A stretch of DNA of 19,727 bases from Candidatus Eiseniibacteriota bacterium (GCA_031364845.1 JANLWX010000197.1:1-19727); one strand, 5' to 3'. Counted from the stretch's first letter, positions 3,001-18,000 are shown. A program made the numbers.

Positions 3001-6000
3001 TTCGTGACGCTGATCGTCGTCGCGTGCGTCGTGCTCTACATCGCGTCGCTCGCCCTGCAGCCGGAGGCGATCCTCGCTCCGGGTGGCGGCGGGCCGCTCG
3101 GCATGCTGTTCAATCTGCTGTCGCCGGGGACTCGCGCGCTCTACCAGCTCGGCATGACGGGTGGTGCGGCGTGGAGCCAGGGCTGGTGGTGGACGCTCTT
3201 CACGGCGGTGTACCTGCACGGGAGCCTGCTGCACATCTTCTTCAACGTGATGTGGATCCGAAATCTCGGGCCTACGGTCGACGAGGTCTATGGCCCGGCG
3301 CGCGGGTTCGTGATCTTCAGCGTGTCCGGTGCCGCGGGGTTTCTGGTTTCCAACCTGGCGACGGCGACGCCGACGATCGGCGCGTCCGGCAGCATCTTCG
3401 GGTTGCTCGCGGCGTTGATCGTCTATGGCCGCCGCACCGGCTCCTCGATGCTGACGCAGCAGCTGTGGCAGTACGCGATCATGATGTTCGTGATGGGCTT
3501 CGTGATGAGTTCGGTCAACAACTGGGCGCATGCGGGCGGGTTTGCGGGCGGATGGGTCGCGGGCGAGGCGATGCGGTTCGGACACGAGAAGCGCGAGAGC
3601 CTGGCGGTCCAGTTGGTGGCGCTCGGCCTGCTGGGCCTCACGGTGGTGGGATTCGTGCTGTCGTTCGTGCGCGTGACGATGATTCTGATGAAGGGCTGAC
3701 GCCGCTATTCGCCGGTTGGGGCTTCAATTGGTTCAGAACACCCAACTCGCTGCCGAAAACCTCAGGGGCACGGCACGCAGGCTCGAGTTCGAAGGGGCGG
3801 GATGTCCGGATCATTCCTCGAAAATCATCTGGCGCATTCGCGCGATGAATTCACGGTGCTTCCCCCGGAGCAGCGCGGGCCGGTCGTGCGCACCGCGATC
3901 ACGGACCTCCACTACTTTTTCGACGAGGGCCGGGAGTTCGCCGAGCGCGAAGCGCCGGCTCGCAGCCGCGCGTTCGCGGCCGAGCTGTATCGCGCGATGG
4001 AGTCCGTGGGCAGCCCGGATGCGGTGACGCGCACGCTGCGCGAGCGCATCGTCACCGATGCGCTGCTGCGTACCGAAGCCGACCGCGATCAGAACGTCTA
4101 TCTGGGTCCGTTCTTCACCCGCTCGCTCACGCGCGCGGTTCCCGACGTCATCTTCCAACCGGCGACGAGCGCCGAGGTCGCGCGCGCGCTGCGCTGGGCG
4201 CGCGAACGCGGAGTGCCGGTCACGTTGCGCGGCGCGGCATCGACCGCGATGGGTGGCGCGGTGCCGAACGACGCAGGCCTGGCGCTCGATCTGTCGCGGC
4301 TCGATTCGATCGAGGTCGACGCCGCGGCCGGCGTGTGTGTCGTCGGCGCGGGCGCGCGCATGCGCACGATCCACACCGCACTCGCCGCGCGCGGGCTCGC
4401 ACTACTCGCGTATCCGTCCAATCTCGGCGGCACGTTTGCGGGTTGGTTCGCGACCGGCGGAATCGGCATGAATGCGTACGGCGCGGGGCGCGCGCTCGAC
4501 ATGGTGCGCGCGGCCGAGGTGTTGCTGCCTTCGGGCGAGCACGTGCGATTCCACGACGATGGCCGCGTCGATCTGCCCGAGAACCAGGCGCATCGCACGC
4601 TCACCGCCGCCGAGGCGGCGAGCTGGTTCCATTCACGCGGCTACCAGGCGTTCGGCCTCGCGGATCTCGCGGGCAGCGAAGGCACGCTCGGTGCCTTGCT
4701 GCAGTTGACGCTGCGCGTCGAGCCGCGGCCCGAGGTCGGGGCGTTCCTCCTGTCGTTCGCGCGCGAATCGGACGCAGCGGACGCGGTGTTGTGGCTCGGG
4801 CGCCTCGAGTTGTCTGCCAAGCCGGCGAACGTGAAGCTGCTTTCGGGATCGCATATGCACCACACGCGCCGCGTGTGGGAAGACGAGGACGCGCGCGAGT
4901 GGCACGATCATCCGGGTGCCCTCACCGACGGCTCGCAGCTTCCGTGGCGGCGCATCGCCGGTCCGCGCGAGCTGGGTGCGGCGTGCGCCGAAGATGTGCA
5001 CGATGCGGCGGCGTACCTGTTCGTCGACTTCTTCGATCTCGGGGCTGCGCGATCCTTTGCGCGCGCCGCGATCACGTGTCCCGGCGCTCCGCGCGTGCTC
5101 GATGCCGAGAGCGCGCGATTCGCGGCCGAACGCTTCAAGCCACAGCAGACCAAGCGGCTCGGACCGGGCATGCTGGCGGCCGAAATCCTGTTGCCGGCGG
5201 GCGAGGTGAAGCGCTTCCTTCCGCGCGCCGCGGCACTCGCGCGCAACGCGGGCAATGCGCTGGATGCGGAAGTCTACTTCCTCGCGGACGGCTCGGCGCT
5301 CGTGATCGCGGGTTATCTCACCGATCATCGCACCGGCGCGTTCGCGGTCGATCTGATGATCGCCCCGGCGCTGCTCGATCTCGCGATGCACGATCATCAG
5401 GGCCGGCCCTATGTGCTCGGGCGCTGGCAGTCGGCGTGGTTCGTGAACAAGTTCGGGCCCGCGGCGGCCGAGCGCCTGCGCGAGATCCGGCGCGGGCTCG
5501 ACTCGAACGCGATCGTGAACCGCGGCGTGTTCACCGGCCTCGAATTGCGCGGTGTGCTCGGCTCGATCGTTGCCGCGACGTTCGCGCCCGGCGTCACGCT
5601 GATCCGCACGATCTATCAGGTGCAAGCACTCGCATGGATGGCGCGCGCGGCGCGCGGGTTCCTGCGCGGAATGTCGGGCCCCGCGCACGGACGCGGCGCG
5701 CCGCTTCCGCACGCGACGGCGAAGGCAGGGGCGGTGGAACTCGCTCCCGAAGACCGCGCGCTGCACTGCGTGAATTGCGGCGAGTGCAATTCAGTGTGCC
5801 CGGTGTTCCACGAATCGAAGATCCGTTTGCCGCAGATGCTCGTCCACATCGGCGAGTCGATGCGCGGCAAGGAGCCGATCACTCCTGCCGGCGGCACGCT
5901 GCTCGACCTGTGCATGCGCTGCGGCAACTGCGAGCAGGTGTGCCAGGCCGGCATCACCCATCTGCCGCTCTACGAGAGCATGCAGCGCACGGCTGACGCG

Positions 6001-15000: not shown

Positions 15001-18000
15001 CGGACGCGCGCGGCGAGTTGTCGCTCAGGCCGCGGCCCTACTCGGGCAAGTTCTTCATGTCCGGTGCCGCCGCGGGTCGCGTGTTCGTGTTCGATCCGCT
15101 GGTGCGCCTCGATCCGGCGCAGTATGGCGGCAACGTGCTGTCGTCGATCACGCCGGAAGAGTGGACGCAGGAGCTGGGTCCGATGATCGCAAGCGAAGCG
15201 AAGCGCCGCGGTCTGCCGATCCGCATCGAGGGTGACTCGCTCACCATCAAGCTCGAAGGCGAGTGGCGCCGGTGGCGCTACGACGAGGCGTTCGCGAAAT
15301 TGATACCGGTCAAGATCGCGCGCGCGTCACAGCAGCAGGGTGTGGTACCGCCCGCGCTGGTGCAGATCGTCGGGGAATAGGCGACCACGCGAATGCCCGC
15401 CGTGCAGCGTCCCGAACTCAGCGCACGATGACCGCGCCCGAGATCCTCGAACACACGATCACCACGCCGAACGGCAAGGTGCCCGCGCTGTGGATGCGCC
15501 CGCCGGCCGCACGCGCGGCGCTGGTGCTCGCGCACGGCGCAGGGGCGGGCATGCGGCATTCGTTCATGGAGGCCATCGCCGCGCGCTGCGCGGCCAACGG
15601 TCTCGCGACGCTGCGCTACGAGTTTCCGTACACCGCGGCCGGATCGCGAAGACCCGATCCGCAGCCGGTGCTGCTCGAAACGGTTCGGGCTGCCGTCGCC
15701 GTGGCGCGCGGGCTCGGCGGCGATCTGCCGCTGATCGCGGGCGGGAAGTCGATGGGTGGGCGCATGACCACGCTCGCCGCGGCCGAGGAGCCGCTCAATG
15801 GCGTGCGCGGGATCGTGCTCGTGGGATTTCCGCTGCACGGCGCCGGCCAGATGCCGAACAGCGCGCGCGCCGCGCACCTCGACCAGGTCCAGGTGCCGAT
15901 GCTGTTCCTCCAGGGCACGCGCGACGCGCTCGCCGATCTCGACCTGATGCGCGGGGTTTGCGGCCGGCTCGGCTCCCGCGTCACACTGCATGTCGTCGAG
16001 GGCGCCGACCACAGCTTTCACGTTCCGAAACGCTCCGGCCGCGACGACGCGATGGTGCTGGATGAACTCGCCGTTTCGACCGTGGTATGGATCGAAACGC
16101 TTCAGCTCATCGCCCGCCGCCGCCAGACCCGGGAGGACAAGGCCGAATGAAGTTCCACATCGGGACCAGCGGTTACTCGTACGCCGAGTGGAAGGGCAAG
16201 TTCTACCCGGAAAAGATCAAGCCCGCCGACATGCTGCCTTACTACGCGACCCAATTCGGCGCGGTCGAGATCAACTACACGTTCTATCGCATGCCGAAGC
16301 CCGAAATGGTCCAGAGCTGGACCGCCCGCGTTCCGCCCGGGTTCCAGTTCGTGCTCAAGGCGCCGCGGCGTGTGACGCACGACCGGCGACTGGCCGATGT
16401 CGGCGAAGTCCTCGGATATTTTCTCAACGCGGCGATGACGCTCGGAGACCATCGCGGACCGCTGCTGTTCCAGCTTCCGCCCAATTTCAAGCGTGATGAC
16501 GCGCGCCTCGCGGACTTCCTGGTACAACTGCCGGCCACAGTCCGTGCCGCGTTCGAGTTTCGCAACGCCTCATGGTTCGACGATACGGTGTTCACGCTGC
16601 TGAAGACCCACCAGGCCGCGCTCTGCATCGCGGACACCGAGGACGGACTCGACACGCCGTTCGTCGCGACCGCGCGGTGGGGATACTTCCGGCTGCGCGA
16701 TGTCGACTACGCCGACGGCGAGCTGGAGGCGTGGATCGCCCGCGCGCGTGAACCGGAGTGGAGCGAGGCGTTCGTGTTCTTCAAGCACGAGGACGAAGCG
16801 CGCGGTCCGGAGTTCGCGCGGCGCTTCTCGGAACTCGCGGTCTGATCCAGGGCGCTCGGCCCGGATGCTCCGCATCGCCTATACTGCCCGACCACTAGAC
16901 CCCAAGAGCCACGACCGACCTGGGAGCTGACATGACGAACCGAGTACTCCCGCGACACGTGGCGGGACTGGCCGCCGGAATCGTTCTGATGTGCGGTACG
17001 GCGATGGTGCTGATCGCGCCGCGCGCGCGCGCTCAGGATCCGGAGTTCCGCAGCAACGTGTCGATCGCCGGAGGTCCGATCTTTCCTGTCGGCGCCCGGC
17101 CTCCGTTCGACGAACTCGGCAGCACCTATATGGCCGCGATCTCGGTGGGCGACGATTTCTCGACCGTCGGCTTTGCGCTCGGCTATTCGGTGTTCGGCGC
17201 AAGCCCGCTCGCGGACCGCGGGACGAGCGTCTCGCAGTTCGAGCTGCGCGCCGACTGCGTGCCGTTCTCTCCCGACACATGGTCACCGTATCTGCGCCTG
17301 GGCGCCGGCGCGTACAACGTCGACCTCGACCGGTCGATCAAGGACAGCACCTCGCGCCGGGTCGGAATCGCGACCGGGGTCGGTGTGCGGTGGGCGCCGC
17401 GGTGGCACACGGCGATGACGCTGGTCGCCTCGTATCACAACGTGCCGTCGCGCGGAACCTCGACGCGGCAGTGGATCGGCCTCACCCTCGAGCTGCTGCG
17501 CTGGATGGACTGAAGCCGGTCCTCACGCAGGACCGAGCACCGCCCTGACTTTGTGCGTGGCACCGTCGTCCGTGAGCCGGATGCCCGCTTTGGGATCGAG
17601 CGCTGTTCCATCCAGCTCGAGGCTCACGATGCCCGTGGTTGCATGGTTCGGGTTCTCGATCTGCACTTCGTAGGTCGCCGAGTGATGCCGCAGGCGGATC
17701 GAGTAACCCGGCCAGTTGCGCGGGATCGCCGGATCCAGATGCAGGACGCCGTCGCGCACGCGCACACCGAGAATCCACTCCAGCCCCGCGCGATGGAGCC
17801 AGCCGGCGGCCCCGGTGTACCACGTCCAGCCACCGCGGCCGGTGTGCGGGGGCTCGGCGTAGACGTCGGCCGCGACGACGTACGGCTCGGCGCCGTAGCG
17901 CTGCATGTCCTCACGGTTCGTGGCGTGCATGATCGGATTCAACATCTGGAAGATCGCGGCCGCGCGATCGCCGTCGCCGAGCTCGGCGAACGCGATCGCG

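Follow-up and report, generated by a model that had tools for sequence, protein, structure and literature searches.

Textbooks give glutamine synthetase (GS) as the sole way to make glutamine and describe glutamate synthase (GOGAT) as a one-way enzyme. Uncultured bacteria that carry the enzyme described here and have no GS raise the question of whether redox power, instead of ATP, can pay for amide formation. We analyzed a contig of 19,727 nucleotides from a Candidatus Eiseniibacteriota genome (hereafter the window), on which genes for an FAD/Fe-S protein, a GS and a giant protein follow one another (Table 1). The initial annotation had read the giant as a circularly permuted glutamate synthase that draws electrons from the adjacent hydroxyacid-type flavoprotein. 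The FAD/Fe-S gene and the giant gene encode one GltB-type amidotransferase-oxidoreductase.

Table 1. Features of the window
Feature	Coordinates	Strand	Evidence
Dedicated FAD/Fe-S partner, 886 aa	3802..6462	+	Pfam, PDB matches, Cys conservation, site alignment, fusions
Type III glutamine synthetase (GlnN type), 733 aa, genome's only GS	6569..8770	+	GSIII_N E 5e-68
Giant GltB-type precursor, 2,199 aa if false stop read through	8781..15380	+	ORF read-through, homolog alignment
First TIM barrel, flavin-less, central-domain equivalent, residues ~95-470	9063..10190	+	AF2 and VIA, colinearity
Low-quality assembly patch: false TAA (9237-9239) and four false substitutions	9185..9283	+	Invariant-column departures, run contigs, P0045
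Beta-rich insert, family-specific, residues ~577-723	10509..10949	+	AF2 strands; gap versus P0203
FMN/synthase barrel: SGEGG, EIKINQGAKPG, HDIYSIED, K864, CxxCxxCxxxCP (11748-11780)	10953..12020	+	Pfam, 1ea0 alignment, conservation
Variable linker ending ERDS|C	12021..12194	+	Alignment; Cys1138 codon 12192-12194 is Ntn nucleophile, predicted self-cleavage site
Class II glutamine amidotransferase (GAT) domain; NNRGGG, HHRYPTNS, HNGE, TDTE invariant	12192..13860	+	Profile, AF2, conservation
Helical connector, common to stand-alone GAT-GXGXG subunit	13914..14366	+	Alignments, AF2
GXGXG beta-helix domain and C terminus	14439..15380	+	Profile, VIA

The giant is split into two ORFs of the same frame, 8781-9239 (152 aa) and 9243-15380 (2045 aa), with TAA between them at 9237-9239; replacing that stop by X yields one chain of 2,199 aa. 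This stop, left earlier as either an allele or an assembly fault, is almost certainly an assembly error within a patch of ~100 nt. Four of the seven departures of the giant from 614 invariant columns cluster at 9204-9221. Run X1 has contigs with 0 differences over 8600-9184 and 9284-9900 and a gap across the patch; a contig of run X2 (8891-9445) shows 12 differences, the 10 listed all within 9185-9259, and carries GAC at 9237-9239. All four runs compared belong to one study, possibly of the source sample. P0045, 92% identical over the covered part of the C-terminal half, shows ...DGLREEFSTAWD. The 33 intact full-length homologs (2,107-2,350 aa) are 57-77% identical to the giant, the range first reported, and 31 of them have Asp at the stop, with one Glu and one His, where 16 of 16 had been given as Asp. 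A true pseudogene in this strain would agree with the assembly, which does contain the TAA, and with the best-matching run, none of whose contigs among those listed crosses it; this is very improbable given the bunching of odd substitutions around the stop, the GAC of the near-identical X2 contig and the intact homologs. A real stop would leave the conclusions on the family untouched. The label Chlamydiales, reported among homologs, was absent from the loci examined here. No RNA dataset carrying the locus appeared among the matches listed, and a promoter and terminator scan gave nothing exceeding shuffled sequences.

The giant carries all four GltB domains: a central-like barrel, the FMN barrel, an Ntn glutaminase with Cys1138 and a beta-helix. 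As noted before, the sole domain recognized by Pfam is Glu_synthase (571-874 of the 2045-aa ORF), besides a weak Fer4_8 (E 0.083), and the GltB FMN domain is the only match of a phmmer search of the PDB. The first barrel opens with SHAAITHPANDGLREE, which is invariant and corresponds to FAQVTNPPIDxxRE of GltB, and is colinear with gene 2 of split relatives and with P0203; the AF2 model of the N-terminal half of L003 aligns with 6s6s (VIA Z 19.1, rmsd 3.4, 283 aligned). AF2 of the N-terminal half is weak over the FMN barrel (pLDDT <50 for 769-890) and gave weak barrel matches with Foldseek; because this barrel is poorly modeled, no active-site geometry was taken from it. AF2 of the whole C-terminal half (pLDDT 86.7, pTM 0.90) bears out the proposed Ntn fold: Cys1138, present in 33/33 homologs and indeed about 1,130 residues inside the chain, aligns with residue 1 of GltB, GlmS and PurF (VIA Z 15-24), and the half as a whole aligns with 1ofe, range 1..1507 (Z 24.0, rmsd 3.4, 594 aligned). 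Profiles match the glutaminase domain to GlmS/GFAT/PurF (E 2.6e-5) and the beta-helix to the GltB C-domain (1llw, E 5.6e-4) and FwdC; a 65-sequence profile gave PDB matches, and a 34-sequence profile of the C-terminal half gave none. The beta-helix and the central-like barrel had been overlooked in the initial annotation.

The Arg, HxRxxT, HNG and TD motifs of the glutamine site are invariant (33/33), in agreement with the profile alignment to GlmS. Also kept in 33/33 are E886, Q909, K931, Q934, K937, R957, S976-I977-E978 and K999 (numbered as in A. brasilense by counting along the 1ea0 alignment), which we take to be functional residues of the FMN site, the 2-oxoglutarate (2-OG) site and the tunnel. 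The 33 homologs invariably have GSGNYH where the 2-OG loop of GltB has GTGAS (GGTGAS), and CxxCxxCxxxCP versus the three-Cys [3Fe-4S] motif.

A propeptide-like (E/D)(H/R)DS|C site precedes Cys1138, behind a linker whose stretch from GRTDLL to SEPV spans 37-85 aa among homologs. Such a site at an internal Ntn nucleophile makes the self-cleavage proposed earlier likely, and we expect with good confidence that the giant cuts itself at Ser1137|Cys1138. PMC5753285 describes MEROPS C44 as including glutamate synthase precursors as self-processing.

Circular permutation, in contrast, has to be abandoned. A permutant of GltB (A-B-C-D) would need the order central-FMN-beta-helix-GAT, whereas the giant runs B-C-A-D, with the beta-helix after the GAT, and this order is unreachable by permutation. 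The genes of a four-gene split operon in relatives stand in just this order. Homology and colinearity with the split barrel, FMN and GAT-GXGXG subunits mark the giant as a gene-order fusion of that operon, and its nucleophile is internal because three split genes were fused in gene order. In the archaeal-type relatives L074 and L075, the genes encode FAD/Fe-S, Fe-S+barrel, Fe-S+FMN and GAT-GXGXG with an EEGG|C leader; such split operons are the closest full-length relatives of the giant, and L076-L078 are partial fusions. The first ferredoxin of the split forms appears to have moved to the C terminus of the giant's partner. A four-subunit split form is reported in Ca. Nitrosocosmicus (PMC6657660). 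In an FMN-domain tree the stem leading to the giant is very long (2.0 changes per column), and its join to the split forms is flagged as unsure. Literature listings that left most subscription papers outside showed no biochemical study of the fused giant. P0088 (1,931 aa, FAD and Glu_synthase domains), considered as another fusion, is a frameshifted read-through.

The partner gene precedes the giant in 55/55 loci that include the giant's N terminus (14 of 69 loci lack it); the earlier statement that it does so in every relative thus holds for order, while immediate adjacency is seen in only 50, and GSIII lies between the two genes in 5/55. Together with ~3,000-aa proteins in which the partner is fused to the synthase (P0203 and relatives), this supports the FAD/Fe-S protein as a dedicated partner in place of GltD. 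Neighbor clustering found no other conserved gene, save a rhomboid in 13 loci. The partner comprises a PCMH/VAO-type FAD domain (114-250) with a remodeled cap domain, a GlcF-like 2x[4Fe-4S] module (653-718) and a C-terminal 2x[4Fe-4S] ferredoxin (794-845), its Cys motifs being kept in 38 homologs. D-LDH/LctD are its best PDB matches, and with GlcD/GlcF, LctD and D-LDH (8jdc, 7qh2) it shares the FAD-binding PCMH fold, the FAD-oxidase C cap, the GlcF-like module and an Arg at the substrate position. Unlike GlcD/LctD, it has no CCG domain by Pfam, carries the additional ferredoxin, and has YFLADGxAL and GRPYVLG in place of HxGDGNxH and EHG, which we take to be metal-binding motifs. The His/His/Glu metal site is absent in 14/14 partner sequences aligned to the canonical GlcD-type protein of the same genome, and on this ground we reject a hydroxyacid or 2-hydroxyglutarate as electron donor. 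An FAD-linked oxidase fold with its metal site lost fits electron exit.

We then considered in which direction the enzyme runs. The giant is the sole Glu_synthase-domain gene of this 97%-complete assembly; one GltD-like ORF elsewhere in the genome, which falls below all gltD cut-offs and shares its contig with a PreA-like ORF, may be used in trans. The GSIII gene, whose start we picked by an upstream RBS-like AGGAGA, is an exception as a neighbor rather than the general setting: found inside the operon here and in 5/55 loci, its adjacency is sporadic. Among all 71 genomes of family f1 at least 80% complete, 20/27 carriers of the giant have no match to PF00120, versus 2/44 non-carriers; about 14 genomes with neither GS nor giant would be expected by chance, and the 2 observed are also without full glmS. 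This GS-complementary distribution is new here. Outside f1, leaving out the unpublished G065, 4/9 carriers, from four different families, are without GS versus 0/81 non-carriers. A GSIII-specific model found nothing in 22 GS-less genomes tested, nor did PF03951 in 5/5. GS is kept in 13/16 carriers labeled Thermoleophilia/Actinomycetes and in 3/3 Planctomycetota carriers. Absences call for caution because genes go missing from MAGs (28/82 gave no rpoB, this genome included), and the Fisher p of 7e-10 for the association ignores kinship and is no proof, kin not being independent. In an RpoB tree of 51 genomes, the carrier and GS-less states change 10 times each; a phylogenetically independent pairs test, underpowered with 3 pairs on starred branches, was not significant.

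GS-less carriers still need glutamine, since 19/20 retain glmS, although they may have little of it free: GlnRS occurs in 4/20, versus 12/12 GS-positive non-carrier controls. Asparagine as a substitute amide donor is not indicated, AsnA being equally common in GS-less carriers and controls (3/5 each). Most f1 carriers having no GS, the plain GS-GOGAT role first assumed is unsupported, because a forward GOGAT leaves the missing GS unexplained.

We favor, at slightly under even confidence, a reverse GOGAT that forms glutamine and passes electrons to quinone or O2. The cut giant would yield a barrel chain and a glutaminase/beta-helix chain that come together again as in GltB, an ammonia tunnel linking Cys1138 to FMN. 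Glutamate would be oxidized at FMN and the ammonia channeled onto a second glutamate; electrons would pass from FMN through the giant's [4Fe-4S] and the partner's four [4Fe-4S] to its FAD and leave to quinone or O2, for a net 2 Glu -> Gln + 2-OG + 2e-. Glutamate dehydrogenase (GDH) would refill glutamate, and the whole would replace ATP-dependent GS; at least in these Eisenbacteria, this direction seems the likeliest. With the couple near -66 mV and textbook potentials, the computed reverse dG0' is +49 kJ/mol with NAD(P)+, +1.5 with menaquinone, -34 with ubiquinone and -71 with O2/H2O2; COX1 was found in 5/5 carriers tested. The complete scheme, a self-cleaving, redox-driven and ATP-independent glutamine synthase draining through the FAD/Fe-S subunit to the respiratory chain or O2 with GS discarded, is a little less probable again. 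To our knowledge, net glutamine formation by a GltB has no precedent, and a thioester from free glutamate would demand a very tight tunnel. A literature search that left most subscription papers outside found no paper on the giant family or on GltB glutamine formation. Partner look-alikes in largely anaerobic phyla also count against glutamine formation, as do the Thermoleophilia/Actinomycetes and Planctomycetota carriers that keep GS, and GSIII inside the operon in 5 loci, which is expected of GS-GOGAT.

That GSIII placement, seen also next to the split operon in L077, speaks for the direction of the initial annotation, Gln + 2-OG + 2e- -> 2 Glu. The enzyme would then be a forward glutamate synthase fed by a new electron-input subunit, which we consider plausible but less probable. 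Every GltB motif checked in the glutaminase, the tunnel and the FMN site is preserved, canonical gltB occurs in only 4/50 carrier genomes, and PMC6657660 and PMC4600277 treat split archaeal-type GOGATs as running forward. The donor, not a 2-hydroxyacid by the canonical site, would perhaps be NAD(P)H or quinol, and GS-less carriers would live on imported glutamine, which fits the glutaminase encoded in 2/4 of those tested. Forward synthesis nevertheless gives no reason for GS to be absent almost exclusively from carriers; it would be dispensable with GDH-type PF00208 in 71/71 f1 genomes, and the 4 genomes with canonical gltB keep the giant system too, suggesting a non-redundant job.

GltB-like chemistry on another amide, amine or keto acid, as in N-methylglutamate synthase, is unlikely. 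The long FMN-domain stem points that way, as do E940K, Q943R, T1030S, A1032N and S1033Y (A. brasilense numbering), which are invariant and lie at the 2-OG loop and in loop 4, and MgsABC is assembled from the same domains (PMC6237917). Against it, K937, R957, E886 and the SIE978 loop are kept, as are the glutamine-binding motifs; recurrent-ORF clustering found no methylamine-pathway or other conserved neighbor gene, AsnA does not differ between groups, and split forms, also in GS-less genomes, have an ordinary GGTGA loop.

ATP-free glutamine formation, if true, would be the first shown for this kind of enzyme, and would set right genome annotations in which these bacteria appear as glutamine auxotrophs or their GOGAT is overlooked. 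Even run forward, this is an uncharacterized GOGAT architecture with a 1,137-residue "propeptide" and a new electron-transfer subunit. The full range of forms, from split through partly to fully fused and permuted, bears on how GltB was assembled.

Compared with GltB/GltD and Fd-GltS (A. brasilense 1ea0, 2vdc, 6s6s; B. subtilis 7mfm; Synechocystis 1ofd/1ofe), the giant has all four domains, a Cys nucleophile after an E/D-H/R-D-x motif, largely kept FMN, 2-OG and tunnel residues, and a glutaminase and beta-helix predicted to pack alike. It differs from GltB (GAT-central-FMN-beta-helix) in its order central-FMN-GAT-beta-helix, in the length of its "propeptide", where GltB has a brief leader (the numbering offset gives 36 residues for A. 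brasilense), in its four-Cys cluster motif and large inserts, and in a PCMH-type FAD partner, mostly without GS, where GltB systems use GltD or ferredoxin; against PRK11750 it scores 85 bits (cut-off 1047). Split glutamate synthases (GltB1/B2/B3) keep as separate genes the three parts that the giant joins in operon order. Two-chain Ntn hydrolases (acid ceramidase, NAAA, AGA) likewise self-cleave at an internal nucleophile into a heterodimer (PMC9140057), whereas the N-terminal chain released here would be a whole flavoenzyme half. MgsABC with GmaS similarly sets GltB1, B3 and B2 domains beside a GS-family ligase (PMC6237917); in contrast, the GS here is a GlnN-type GSIII (PF12437; TIGR03105 41 bits, cut-off 470), no methylamine/mgd neighbors were recognized, and the giant has a dedicated redox partner.

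In the window, a rhomboid protease gene, a gene for an 886-aa FAD/Fe-S protein (the partner), one for type III glutamine synthetase (GSIII) and the reading frame of a giant GltB-type protein (2,199 aa with its TAA read through) follow one another on the same strand. A search for related loci retrieved 69, of which 33 encode intact full-length homologues of the giant (2,107-2,350 aa, 57-77% identical), under record titles naming Eisenbacteria, Thermoleophilia/Actinomycetes, Planctomycetota, Krumholzibacteriia, Latescibacterota and a few others.

Features of the window, with strand and basis of assignment
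Feature	Position	Strand	Basis
HNH protein with RuvA-like C-end (unrelated neighbor)	6-1076	+	Pfam
Secreted FlgD-Ig protein (unrelated neighbor)	1095-2723	-	Pfam
Zinc-ribbon rhomboid protease gene; precedes the operon in 13 loci, the window among them	2851-3699	+	
FAD/Fe-S gene, 886 aa (partner)	3802-6462	+	ORF and Pfam
GSIII	6569-8770	+	ORF and Pfam
Giant's reading frame, interrupted once (TAA at 9237-9239)	8781-15380	+	
Alpha/beta hydrolase plus DUF72 (unrelated neighbors)	15425-16845	+	Pfam
GH94 phosphorylase fragment (unrelated neighbor)	17523-19727	-	Pfam

The TAA, for which the initial annotation had considered either an allele or an assembly fault, is almost certainly the latter. The window deviates from its homologues at 7 of 614 invariant columns, and four of these deviations lie at 9204-9221. 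In the best-matching public sequencing run, perfect contigs stop at 9184 and restart at 9284. A contig from another run, over 8891-9445, differs from the window at 12 positions (all 10 listed fall within 9185-9259) and reads GAC at the TAA; the four runs with matching contigs belong to a single study and do not represent independent sampling. A close relative on record, P0045, carries the invariant sequence in this patch. Asp had been described as universal at this position; it is indeed the usual residue (31 of the 33 intact homologues), with one Glu and one His. That the stop is genuine and the giant a real pseudogene in this strain is highly improbable, given the grouping of the four odd substitutions, the GAC contig and the 33 intact homologues.

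We then consider the architecture of the giant. Pfam again recognized the FMN domain alone. A C-half profile enriched with distant relatives matches GlmS, GFAT and PurF (best E 2.6e-5) as well as the beta-helix (GXGXG) of GltB/FwdC. The AlphaFold model of the C-half (pLDDT 86.7, pTM 0.90) aligns with GltB over 594 residues (rmsd 3.4, Z 24.0) spanning GltB residues 1 to 1507, which indicates a GltB-like packing of glutaminase and beta-helix with the intervening barrels gone. Cys1138, the predicted Ntn nucleophile, superposes on GltB Cys1, bearing out the amidotransferase fold originally proposed for this region. In the N-half model, from the related locus L003 (pLDDT 69.9), the first barrel best matches GltB (Z 19.1, rmsd 3.4, 283 residues aligned); it opens with the invariant SHAAITHPANDGLREE, counterpart of GltB FAQVTNPPIDxxRE, and lacks FMN motifs. 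According to a passage in PMC8097209, the walls of the GltB tunnel are formed by the synthase domain together with the central domain, which is a truncated barrel. The order in the giant is thus central-FMN-glutaminase-beta-helix, which rules out the circular permutation of GltB that had been proposed. A beta-rich insert of ~150 aa (window 10509-10949), found in giants only, lies immediately ahead of the FMN barrel.

The predicted cleavage site, (E/D)(H/R)DS|C, is present in 33/33 homologues behind a linker variable in length and sequence, and resembles the EHDA|C of a canonical GltB (P0123). When the cut of an Ntn hydrolase falls at an internal Cys, a heterodimer results, as mentioned in PMC9140057. 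The giant likely cleaves itself at Ser|Cys1138, which would regenerate split subunits.

The giant's C-half matches stand-alone ~870-aa glutaminase-beta-helix proteins with an EEGG|C leader over up to 99% of its own length, at 23-27% identity. Among split-type loci (8 of 14 regions fetched), two from the same phylum (L074, L075) encode, in order, the FAD/Fe-S protein, Fe-S+barrel, Fe-S+FMN and glutaminase-beta-helix; L076 and L077 join the two barrels in one gene, and L078-L081 have no adjoining FAD gene. The giant is a fusion, in gene order, of genes 2-4 of such an operon. A second lineage, with some records labeled KSB1, fuses all four genes: P0203 (3,016 aa) aligns colinearly with the partner followed by the giant, and 13 full-length proteins (3,013-3,345 aa) share this plan, with an internal xxDA|C at about residues 1,900-2,000. 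P0251 (3,152 aa), whose glutaminase-beta-helix block comes first behind a hydrophobic leader, is a true permutant of the four-gene fusion. Phyla with split or fused forms include KSB1, Chloroflexota, Desulfobacterota, Thermoplasmatota and Asgard. In the FMN-domain tree, giants sit on a long stem whose placement is not fixed.

Further plans built from the same modules occur in P0292 (2,559 aa) and P0270 (Omnitrophota, 1,606 aa). In P0293 (2,478 aa), a P450-reductase-like module with flavodoxin, FAD-binding and NAD-binding domains (PF00258, PF00667, PF00175) is joined to a GltB that has all four canonical Pfam domains. Some neighbors were recognized by eye. Downstream on the opposite strand, 10 Thermoleophilia/Actinomycetes loci carry a NuoG/HoxU-like Fe-S gene and four carry 2-oxoacid:ferredoxin oxidoreductase genes (loci with either: L028, L030, L033, L036, L042, L049, L053, L054, L057, L067). 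L076:12725-14464 (-), which immediately precedes the split operon of G158, a genome lacking glutamine synthetase (GS), resembles a glutamine-dependent NAD synthetase; L078:10100-12318 (-), upstream of a FAD-gene-free split operon, encodes a response regulator and GAF kinase resembling an ANTAR-type pair.

As first described, the partner gene lies 5' of the giant; it does so in 55/55 informative loci, directly adjoining in 50. This position and its fusion in the second lineage mark it as dedicated to the giant. Its fold is that of D-lactate dehydrogenase, and it has four [4Fe-4S] motifs. Aligned with the source genome's own GlcD-type protein (genome G000), whose metal motifs read HxGDGNxH and EHG, all 14 partners compared, near and distant, have other residues in place of both. 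On these residues, the partner is not a canonical hydroxyacid dehydrogenase, contrary to its initial assignment. G000 also encodes a GltD-like ORF elsewhere, probably PreT.

Computed from textbook potentials, the Gln+2-OG/2 Glu couple lies near -66 mV, and the reverse reaction (2 Glu -> Gln + 2-OG + 2e-) is uphill with NAD(P)+ (+49 kJ/mol), so that a GltD-coupled enzyme cannot reverse; with menaquinone as acceptor it comes out neutral, while ubiquinone or O2 makes it downhill. An enzyme wired to an oxidase-fold subunit could run in reverse, provided its tunnel retains ammonia. All 71 genomes at least 80% complete in the family around G000 were compared; 27 carry the system (26 giant, one split). 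No GS-domain match was found in 20 of these carriers vs 2/44 non-carriers, and those two also lack a full glmS; a GSIII-specific model and PF03951 agree. Outside the family, GS is absent in 4/9 carriers, from four families, vs 0/81 non-carriers (one unpublished genome excluded). As genomes have one or the other and seldom neither, the giant system and GS look like two solutions to one need, and since GS supplies glutamine, that need would be glutamine. GDH-type genes occur in 71/71 family genomes, glmS in 19/20 GS-less carriers, COX1 in 5/5 carriers tested and canonical gltB in 4/50 carrier genomes (50 of 69 loci submitted).

We tentatively favor glutamine formation by giant and partner, against which several observations weigh. 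On an RpoB tree (51 of 82 genomes of the order; G213 and rpoB-less genomes excluded), carrier and GS-less states interleave with 10 changes each, and a sign test was not significant, with only three independent pairs on starred branches. GlnRS is found in just 4/20 GS-less carriers (missing in 16) vs 12/12 GS-positive non-carrier controls, and a glutaminase gene in 2/4 GS-less carriers tested. GS is kept by Thermoleophilia/Actinomycetes (13/16) and Planctomycetota (3/3) carriers, GSIII lies inside the operon in 5 loci, and partner look-alikes include largely anaerobic phyla. GS absence may also partly reflect gene loss from MAGs, as rpoB was not found in 28/82 genomes, including the 97%-complete G000. 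Forward GOGAT activity (Gln + 2-OG + 2e- -> 2 Glu) with perhaps NAD(P)H or quinol as electron donor is a possible, somewhat doubtful alternative; other substrates are unlikely, although the 2-OG loop is invariantly altered in giants. The direction may differ between lineages.

Our literature search, with subscription papers mostly outside its reach, found no paper on the giant's family or on reverse GOGAT. Among published systems, split archaeal-type GOGATs appear in PMC6657660 and PMC4600277, and MgsABC in PMC6237917. Fold model and residues place the giant among the class II amidotransferases, and it is predicted to work like GltB, from which it differs in domain order, cluster motif and partner. 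If it does make glutamine, the system would be categorically new.
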